From Octopus sinensis (Eukaryota): a stretch of 64,000 nucleotides of DNA. The stretch is from the NCBI RefSeq assembly GCF_006345805.1, contig NC_042997.1, positions 100,688,001-100,752,000 of the forward strand, in the 5' to 3' direction. The translations under genes and the position numbers were made by a program. Of this stretch, positions 48,201 to 51,200 are shown in pieces. Positions within the stretch are counted from its first letter, which is position 1; every line of letters begins with the position of its first letter. Below the pieces are notes generated by a model. The model had not been told where the DNA came from, made no database searches, and saw nothing but the letters and a program-made list of their open reading frames with translations.

Positions 48201-51200
48201 AATTATTTTGTTGTTTGGTCACATAATATCAAAATGAAAAAGATGTCAGATTTTTTTTGCTACATTTTTGCTAAAATGCAGTTGTCACTTAATCATTGAA
48301 AAAAACAACAACTGTAACTGCAATGATTATATATTTTAGTTGCAAATGTGAAACATAAATGCATTTTTCCTTATTACAAAAGGCTGAAATATTTCTTGCT
48401 AAAATCTTTATCGGCGAATGCCATTGACAACTAAATTTCATAAATTGAAAGACACAAAAATCACAGGAACCCGATTTTTTTCTCCCACTTAAATTTTTGG
48501 TCTTCAGATTGAATGTCAATCAATATTTGTAAATGTTTATTGATGCCAGTCTGAAAATAATATTATTTAATTTTAGTATTCTATGTTTGGAATATCTGGT
48601 GAAATGCTAACTATGAGGATACGGTCCAGATTATTCAAGTCCATTCTACATCAGGTAAGTGAATTCATTGAATAAAATGAAATATAATAAAATAATATAT
48701 ATATATATATATATATATATATATATATATATATCAGCAGTGGTGCCCAGCATGCCGCGGCCTTCGGGCTAAAACATTTTTAAGGATTTTTTAAGGATTT
48801 TAAGGATATAGGTATATATTTTCAGAAATGTACTTGCATAGCAAGTGACCTGATCTAAGATCCTGTGCTGGAACGAAAACAATTGCAGCGTGGAAAGTGT
48901 TTATAGTCCATTTAAGAAACACACAAAAAGCGTTAGATTAACTTCAACATTTAAATTCAATTTGCCAAAATATTTTCATCACTTTGAGACCGCAACCTGT
49001 TCACTGACAAAATTCCATGCTGTTCGGAGATGCAGCACAGAATTTTGTCAGTGAACAGGTCATGGTCTCAAAGAGACGAAAATATTTGGCAAATTAAATT
49101 TAAATGTTGAAGTGAATCTAATGGTTTTTATGTGTTTCTTAAATGGCTTATAAACACCTTCCACGCTGGAATTGTTTATATATTTTCACGTTTAGCAAAA
49201 TCAGTTGAAATAACTTTTGGATTGATATTATGCAATGGCATAGAAAGAGTTCTCTCTCCCTGGGAGCGAATCCATTTTGGTACCCCACCTTAATTAACAG
49301 GTATTGTGGAGTCAGAGAGAATTTTGTGCTTCTCCACACTAGTGCTTGCAAGCAATTTCCATATGCTTTTGAAACAGAAAAGAAGTGAAAAAATTGAATG
49401 GCTTTGAATTTAGTAACATATTTTGTGTTAATCAAACACAACACCTATTCCTTCTAAGCATATTAATTATAATTTGCCATTATGTATTTCCTAAAAGCTT
49501 CTTGTCAAGTGTCATGTTCTAGGTTCACAAAATTTCATAACCAACTAGCTGAAAATTAGCTAATTGGAATTAGTAAATTTAAATTATTTTTACTTGTATC
49601 CAAAAGCAAATCCTAAGCATTTCACAAGACTTTCTCCTCACCCTTTCTCTTTATTATTACTTGTTTGGAGAATCTATAACATTTATAAATAAATGCCTTG
49701 AATAATGCATTATAAAGTATGCAAACCATTGACTATGCAGATCATAAATTATAGAAATACAGTGGTAGAGAGCGTAACTTTTGCAATAACCTTGAAGGTT
49801 CTAACTGTGTTTCACTCATGTTTTGTAGGTGGAAAGAGTGATAACATTCTCTTGAAATGTATGCATAAAATTTTACATTTACGAATTTGTGTTGCCAGAT
49901 TCCTGATATGAAGTTGTGTGTTGAAACAAATATTGTATTTTGGTATGGTCACTTTTTTTTGCCAAATAAGCACATGCGCTGTATATTTGTTCTTCACTTG
50001 TTTATTACTGTTTTTATTTTAACTCATGTCCATTGTCTGGAAATCTTTAATCACACATCTGTGACCTCCTTAGTGACACTTTCTATCTGCTTATTCCATA
50101 TTCTGGAATGGAATAAGCAGAGCAAGAGCACACAGGAAGACGGAAGGTGTCACTGAGAAGGTCACAGATGTATGACGAAAGATTTCTGGATAATGGATAT
50201 AAGTTAGAATAAAAATAGTGATAAATGAGTGAAGAACAAATACATAGTGCATGTGTTTATTTGGCAAAAATAAATTTAAAAAAATTGGAGTGGTTGGCGT
50301 TAGGAAGGGCATCCAGCTGTAGAAACATTGCCAAATTAGACTGGAGCCTGGTGCAGCCTTCTGGCTTCCCAGAACCCCGGTCGAACCGTCCAACCCATGC
50401 TAGCATGGAGAACGGACGTTAAACGACGATGATGATGATGATGATGAATATCTCAAAATACAACAATATGCATAAAATATTGGCATCAAAGAAAACTGAC
50501 CAAAAATTTAAGTTTTACTTATATATAACTTTTTACAAAGAATTTACTAATGCAAAAGATGTTGAAAGGCAACTTGAATATGGTAATGTACATTTTAACT
50601 GGTTTGGTTTAGGGGAAGTAGCTTTGCTTATGGCCTTCCTAGGTCCTCCAAAACTGCTCAGATAGTTAACATTTCCTCTAAGCAGTTGTAAGTCAACAGC
50701 TACAGGAAAAACATATGTAGGGAGTGCATTCTAGTGGGATGTCATTTAGAGGAAAACTGATTAGGTATGGTGGTTAATTTGGTTTTGTGGGGTTAAGATG
50801 GTAAGCTGGCAGAATTGGGTAAAATCCAGGTGAAAAATTTAGTGGCATTTCATCCATCTTTACGTTCTGAGTTCAAATTCCACTGAGGTTGACTTTCAGG
50901 GTTGATAAAATAAGTACTAGTCGAGCATTGGATTTGATGTAATTGACTTACCCCCCACCCTTGAAATTGATGACCTTGTGCCAAAATTTGCAATCAGTAC
51001 GGCGTTGTGAAGGTTGGATACATATGGGTGATGAATGAGTAGAGAGTGCCTGTAAGAGGGTGAATGAAACTGGTCAGTTCTGACATGCAGAAGCTACCAT
51101 TGTTTGCAGTGTATTATAAAAAAAGAAGAGGTGGAGAAGACAGTACATCTGTGATCCAGAAACTGAAGTGTGTTGATGAACAATACATGTTACTCAATCA

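Follow-up and report, generated by a model that had tools for sequence, protein, structure and literature searches.

A natural G3-C8 variant of the hammerhead core in a short non-coding Penelope-like element

The window, a 64,000-nucleotide stretch of AT-rich animal DNA, contains a fold-back at 48825-49176 whose arms carry a hammerhead-like motif with G at core position 3 and C at position 8. The locus raises the question of whether this exchanged pair is a natural compensatory variant of the ribozyme core, and what kind of element carries it. A preliminary description of this DNA had reported the core GTGAACA with an extra G, followed by GAAA, ATAT and TT, in three places. This was confirmed: the pattern lies exactly at 49004-48968 (minus strand), 49051-49087 (plus) and 40187-40151 (minus), and 0 of 100 shuffled sequences matched it.

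The fold-back itself is real and is asymmetric, consisting of two head-to-head copies of an approximately 205-bp element with unequal arms. The long arm (48825-49030, sense strand minus) is a full-length copy with 92.5% identity to a family copy over element positions 4-204. The short arm (49030-49176, plus) is an inverted copy of element positions 1-149 without the final ~55 nt, and this 3' extension, or tail, is found in the long arm only (48825-48876, minus). The focal site is a single insertion, flanked by a 12-bp target-site duplication (left copy 48813-48824, right copy 49177-49188) that had gone unmentioned. The first ~16 nt of the element (window 49015-49040) are near-palindromic, which could let two cDNA ends anneal and favor head-to-head joints.

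Both arms at this locus are decayed. In the long-arm G3-C8 minimal hammerhead (48959-49014, minus; core 49004-48998; predicted cut between 48968 and 48967), stem II reads GTTGC/GTGAT, with three G.U wobbles from CpG decay, and the stem I side reads tggcaaatt. The short-arm hammerhead (49041-49096, plus) is broken: stem II, GTCAT/GAGAC, has one mismatch, and one T is gone at the cleavage site, so that it fails the descriptor. The stems quoted in the preliminary description, gtcgc/gcgac and tgacaaatt, are intact in the copy near 40 kb only and are altered in both focal arms. A transcript spanning both arms is predicted to fold into a single long hairpin (-191.9 kcal/mol, z -23.5), and both motifs would therefore be buried; as modeled, the focal copy is probably inactive, locked in this hairpin.

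The intact motif is found at 40132-40210 (minus), a partial element copy (positions 1-77) with a G3-C8 hammerhead at 40197-40142, its core at 40187-40181 and its predicted cut between 40151 and 40150. Adjoining it is a decayed copy of a sister family with the C3-G8 pair (39863-40085, plus; core at 39870), in which G12 is lost. Further copies of this C3-G8 sister family lie at 24659-24917 (minus; core at 24806), where 24837-24917 is an inverted piece of the tail, and at 49886-50270, a head-to-head fold-back with decayed cores. An older G3-C8 sister family is represented by a decayed copy at 52853-52928 (minus; core GTGACCA). The copy at 7528-7663, said to have lost its centre, is a fold-back at 7526-7667 with no ribozyme centre, and a 13-bp duplication (7510-7522 and 7663-7675) was read by eye at its ends. 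As had been predicted of standard searches, Rfam gives no hammerhead at any of these window copies, and its scan of the focal locus returned nothing but microRNA-like hairpin matches, all below threshold. Elsewhere in the window, 53602-54362 (plus) is a decayed Penelope-like element (PLE) RT fragment (E 6e-6 to a 781-aa PLE ORF), and 35165-38161 (plus) is a LINE-type element with AP endonuclease and RT domains, interrupted by one stop codon. Two further long hairpins (55151-55261 and 9140-9284) have many sub-threshold microRNA matches in Rfam, and 61503-61591 (plus) has a weak match to the Rfam HH10 hammerhead (23 bits, E 3.8), far under threshold.

The element belongs to an abundant family. 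A search of the 2.7-Gb genome gave 2,926 candidates, and a 44-nt core stretch had 760 exact matches against 0 for the control; part of these 760 represent one copy carried within a larger composite (12 of the 30 fetched loci were examined as such). Across 60 loci, the element has a fixed 5' end, ~25 nt ahead of G3, and its 3' end falls at either of two places, around positions 143-153 or around 203-207, which are ~55 nt apart. An inverted partner is joined at the 5' end in 11 of 30 loci and is missing from the other 19; short arms stop at the first 3' end (143-153) in 9 of the 11 inverted loci, and long arms end near 203-207. Insertion targets are AT-rich or (TA)n, and are duplicated over variable lengths of about 8 to 16 bp. 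At 21 of 30 loci the two flanks share a word of at least 8 nt, a count made without a shuffle control and including several in microsatellites. At some loci (L031-L033, L043-L047, L051, L055, L056, L059, L060), the fold-back copy is cargo in a 1.5-2.5 kb composite repeat with one sharp end and about 95% identity between loci, possibly a Helitron-like element.

Long inverted arms and a hairpin of -192 kcal/mol could also be expected of a MITE or hairpin DNA transposon in which the hammerhead look is incidental. However, the two arms differ in length, an inverted partner is missing from 19 of 30 loci, the duplications have no constant length, and homology links the sequence to RT/GIY-YIG elements at their 3' ends; this origin is hardly credible. 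The family was accordingly rejected as a MITE, since it has neither equal terminal inverted repeats nor a fixed-length target duplication. It was also rejected as a non-LTR retrozyme: among the 60 loci, head-to-tail tandems are absent apart from isolated duplications (L016; L044/L045 in the composite), and the 369-bp tandem in L044 is a local duplication in the larger composite.

The motif of this family has the features of a hammerhead. A relaxed descriptor that allows any Watson-Crick 3-8 pair matches the 205-nt family copy and 1 of 20,000 shuffles. Residues U4, G5, A6, A9, G12, A13, A14, the A15.1-U16.1 pair and H17 are present, with U at position 17. Helices I and II, the extra nucleotide after A9 and the G10.1-C11.1 pair are found in the family copy and the 40-kb copy; in both focal arms they are degraded. 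When the RNA of the full element is folded in silico, stems I and II prevail: every pair of stem II and the six innermost pairs of stem I have predicted probabilities of 0.86-0.99. The isolated 81-nt motif is unremarkable in stability (z -0.94). Position 1.3 is A in 18 cores and G in 21, and both pair with U. Canonical C3 and G8 are not the state of the family: of 40 cores sampled from loci chosen by likeness to the focal arm, all have G3 and 37 have C8, so that the proposed swap is conserved and the family is filed as a variant hammerhead. The family was also found in sequencing-run contigs of four organisms (A-D), in whose runs no other letter reaches 3% at G3 or C8, with depth thinner near the ends. 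Ends did not cluster in the contigs covered, whose RNA origin was presumed, and this weighs neither for nor against cleavage.

Helix III of the family, AAUAUU, is palindromic. Its self-duplex is calculated at only -0.2 kcal/mol, against -8.3 for ACCGGU, and a protein-free dimer would therefore be feeble. The C3-G8 core combined with the family's AATATT helix III gave 11 matches versus 4 in controls; L097 is the sole C3-G8 copy of the family among the 11, and its broken stem I is compatible with chance mutation. G3-C8 with an ACRYGT helix III was not enriched over controls (4 matches versus 8).

Fixation within one family is weak evidence, because copies inherit the states of their master, and relatives were therefore examined. 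The same consideration underlies another explanation, namely that a dead ribozyme acquired G3 and C8 through two chance mutations and was spread by one successful master: fixation in one family proves nothing against this, and the passage from C-G to G-C requires a mismatched intermediate. The relatives fall into the same frame. A C3-G8 sister family, with copies in the window as above, gave 28 matches and 0 in controls, with GIY-YIG sequence upstream in 4 of the 28 loci. A search with the endonuclease protein led to a U3 core in 19 of 30 loci (18 U-A, 1 U.G). An older non-coding G3-C8 family (24 matches, 0 in controls; ~60-75% identity) has kept the core and stems, and differs at position 7, in loop II and in helix III. 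Coding PLEs share homology with the element at their 3' end, and this homology extends beyond the ribozyme on its 3' side, with z scores of 4.4-11.2 against the C3-G8 family and of 2.7-4.6 against the U3-A8 family.

An alignment of 22 rows from four homologous families has the 3-8 pair as GC in 10, CG in 7 and UA in 5, with no unpaired cell; as these rows are relatives of one another, selected with core patterns or scripts, they represent three pair states, not 22 events. The covariation score was 0.523, versus at most 0.12 in slid controls. Stem II also covaries in these rows, with CG/UA at 10.3-11.3 and GC/AU at 10.4-11.4. These results support the preliminary description's proposal that G3-C8 is a natural compensatory variant of the PLE hammerhead core. 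They make two chance mutations in a dead ribozyme very improbable, as G3-C8 persists in young and old families ~35% apart, recurs in a lineage without detectable 3' homology and in a metagenome contig pair, and is accompanied by no family-level mismatch.

The recurrence concerns a second, coding lineage. Neptune-like coding elements are abundant in this genome, with 149 GIY-YIG matches and RT plus GIY-YIG in a 781-aa ORF. The G3-C8 pattern with an ACCGGT helix III gave 142 matches versus 62 in controls, and 24 of 30 fetched loci belong to one family. In 11 distinct places, an ACCGGT-class G3-C8 motif lies 186-258 nt (292 in one) behind the endonuclease. Twenty loci chosen by protein alone, four of them decayed and read by eye, have the same stems with 4 G-C, 13 A-U, 1 A.C and 2 unreadable pairs. 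In a quick tree, for which 19 of the 68 labels were assigned by eye and from which rows shorter than 95 aa and three duplicate places had been removed, the G-C and A-U rows form one clade (SH-aLRT 99), within which the tree gives no order of origin of G-C and A-U. No 3' homology of this lineage to the focal family was detectable, so that G3-C8 likely arose twice among the PLEs of this genome.

All four Watson-Crick pairs, C-G, G-C, U-A and A-U, occur at positions 3 and 8 in the genome. When the two positions were left free (G3 and C8 excluded), the ACCGGT class gave 6,507 matches versus 10 in controls. The first 100 of these, read by eye, comprise 75 U-A, 18 A-U, 5 U.G and 2 mismatched pairs, with no C-G; thus 93 are Watson-Crick in a survey that covers the ACCGGT class and counts copies, and no mismatch was found at family level. 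The U3-A8 and A3-U8 PLE hammerhead families (L262-L291) are very abundant and young, with many inverted pairs about 0.25-0.7 or 2.0-4.8 kb apart. Near-identical open 781-aa PLE ORFs with U3-A8 hammerheads (L134-L136) suggest a recently active family; in L134, an upstream 479-aa open frame overlaps the start of the 781-aa ORF.

Outside this genome, 12 pattern matches were found in metagenome contigs. Both stems are present in the near-identical L207 and L215, and stem I has 5 pairs in L209 and 2-3 pairs in the other nine. In L215 (159-2988), a G3-C8 hammerhead with C17 lies behind an endonuclease-less PLE-like RT (25% identity, E 3e-14); a 445-aa open frame that follows the hammerhead in L215/L207 has no Pfam match. 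Among 27 pattern matches in viral contigs, none has a stem I of more than one pair.

The focal family itself appears to be non-coding. A coding ORF adjoins 0 of 60 loci of the young G3-C8 family and 0 of 24 of the older one, and no ORF with RT plus a GIY-YIG domain at the C terminus within the element was found beside these 84 loci, so that an autonomous Penelope-like element was rejected for the focal family. Nearby coding sequence was also rejected as its partner, since it represents just two unrelated neighboring insertions. Comparison of the element with the 3' ends of 70 GIY-YIG loci found no likeness, and the protein search for a coding partner reached the U3-A8 family and no G3-C8 coding family. 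The short copies might, on the other hand, be by-products of a rare autonomous G3-C8 element whose reverse transcription starts near the 5' end of its own mRNA, with no separate non-autonomous family. The fixed 5' end with two 3' ends, the short inverted pairs likewise left by coding families here and the internal-initiation mechanism (PMC11167929) accord with such by-products. We nevertheless consider them unlikely, given that an upstream endonuclease is found at 0 of the 84 loci versus 4 of 28 in the C3-G8 sister family, a sample that is small next to thousands of copies. Were they by-products, the origin of the copies would be altered, not the ribozyme reading.

The explanation that we favor, at a probability of roughly two in three, is that the focal locus is one insertion of a short non-coding PLE, for which a related coding element likely supplied the copying enzyme, and that its natural G3-C8 hammerhead motif likely cuts slowly in intact copies, the decayed fold-back being predicted not to cut. 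By analogy with Poseidon of Anolis, an RT/GIY-YIG protein of the Neptune/Nematis type, acting in trans, would nick both target strands ~12 bp apart. Reverse transcription would then begin at either of two internal sites on uncut RNA, and two cDNAs reaching the RNA 5' end would give the long and short arms. An uncut template is suggested because the copies begin upstream of the cut site. The G3-C8 pair would retain the tertiary pair of the active hammerhead, and the slow cut after U17 in intact RNA would need a second copy pairing through the AAUAUU palindrome, the protein of the element, or both. The preliminary description was right about the G3-C8 variant; it missed the Penelope-like origin, the nature of the fold-back as an insertion by-product and the decay of both focal arms.

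Published mutants bear on whether such a core can cut. The accessible part of PMC8495972 reports that G8C slows the hammerhead about 100,000-fold and that C3G partly restores it. In a PLE hammerhead whose cutting requires its protein, the double mutant C3G/G8C regains part of the activity (PMC11167929). Pairwise mutagenesis of this motif gave a strong rescue with this double change and with no other, according to the available text of PMC9901934. Against cutting, the commonest natural pairs here, U-A and A-U, are without strong rescue in the type III screen of the latter source, so far as that text goes; their commonness may mean relaxed catalysis. As for the cleavage base, G3-C8 is stated to work better with G17 than with C17 (data not shown, in the accessible part of PMC3884650). 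Both G3-C8 lineages have U17 or A17, the C3-G8 sister family has C17, and the metagenome element has G3-C8 with C17. G3 may constrain the cleavage base, avoiding a G3-C17 trap; the metagenome element argues against a strict rule.

Alternatively, the hammerhead-derived motif, while keeping its 3-8 pair, could be a structure to which the PLE protein binds or a signal for translation or processing, and cut hardly or not at all in vivo. This would fit the weak helix III (AAUAUU), the use of uncut RNA as template, the free exchange among four 3-8 pairs and the low activity of minimal PLE hammerheads in the accessible part of PMC4209133. It would also fit the Anolis element, in which cleavage is dispensable for insertion in vitro and no reads end at the cut site (PMC11167929). 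However, every catalytic residue (U4, G5, A6, A9, G12-A14, A15.1-U16.1 and H17) is kept across families, and G3-C8 is the very swap known to restore cutting; we therefore think a role without cutting improbable. Since the 3-8 pair stays Watson-Crick through several independent changes, the active hammerhead fold was likely under selection in the master elements. A broader proposal, to which we give somewhat less than even odds, is that the 3-8 pair has been exchanged repeatedly among its four Watson-Crick forms in the PLEs of this genome, with at least two origins of G3-C8 and all forms cutting in vivo with protein help. If true, it would be natural proof of selection on PLE ribozyme catalysis even in non-coding elements, and canonical-core searches would miss most hammerheads in such genomes.

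The motif can be compared with several known systems. Minimal type I hammerheads sit in the pLTRs of metazoan Penelope-like elements (Cervera and de la Peña 2014, PMC4209133). Like these, as far as the accessible text describes them, the present motif has an extra nucleotide between 9 and 10.1, the G10.1-C11.1 pair, a small palindromic helix III and no loop-loop contact, and occurs mostly as single dispersed copies or opposite-strand pairs 100-700 bp apart. In contrast, the focal core is G3-C8, and A3-U8 families are present in the genome, whereas that text gives C3-G8 and U3-A8. Natural U3-A8 variants (Perreault et al. 2011, PMC3088659, available portion) constitute natural 3-8 covariation as here; G3-C8 and A3-U8 have purine and pyrimidine in the opposite order. 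The accessible portions of the open full-text literature, including PMC3088659, PMC7151607, PMC6155905, PMC6765202 and PMC13725137, yielded natural U3-A8 and neither natural G3-C8 nor natural A3-U8; Lünse et al. 2017, figure-only alignments or a PMC4209133 supplement could hold some.

The insertion resembles known PLE products. The inversion-plus-tail pattern of PLEs, in which one copy is inverted and a single end bears a tail, is given in the accessible part of PMC8557442, and the focal fold-back matches these inversions and tails. In PAc, the Poseidon element of Anolis, two RT start sites delimit the tail, and cutting and extension take place on both strands of the target (Frangieh et al. 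2024, PMC11167929). The focal family shares with PAc two 3' ends that define a tail and AT-rich targets, and PAc engineered with C3G/G8C is partly active. Unlike PAc, the focal family has G3-C8 naturally and is ~205 bp without an ORF, with a tail of ~55 nt, and the coding relatives here have a CxxxxCxxC linker (Neptune/Nematis type). The non-LTR retrozymes, in the available part of bioRxiv 10.64898/2026.07.22.740005, are likewise non-coding PLE derivatives with a type I hammerhead; however, they are head-to-tail tandems, whereas the focal family is dispersed, single or head to head. The small dimeric PLE hammerhead variants (Lünse, Weinberg and Breaker 2017, as summarized in the accessible part of the review PMC6765202) have, like the focal motif, a reduced helix III, and cleave as dimers, as the focal RNA may also do.

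Judged from sequence, G3-C8 is thus well supported, in structure and in descent, as a genuine core variant that occurs naturally in a ribozyme and a class of element both already known. The chemistry is not new, as the engineered C3G/G8C swap was already known to work partly. Searches that fix CUGANGA miss thousands of motifs in this genome, and Rfam recovers 0 of the 3 window copies. The genome also offers a natural four-way 3-8 series in near-identical frames. The PLE papers leave the need for the active fold open (PMC11167929, and the accessible parts of PMC4209133 and PMC8557442). Because the 3-8 pair belongs to the active hammerhead fold, its compensatory conservation is one of a small number of indications, at the level of sequence, that this fold is still required by PLE hammerheads.
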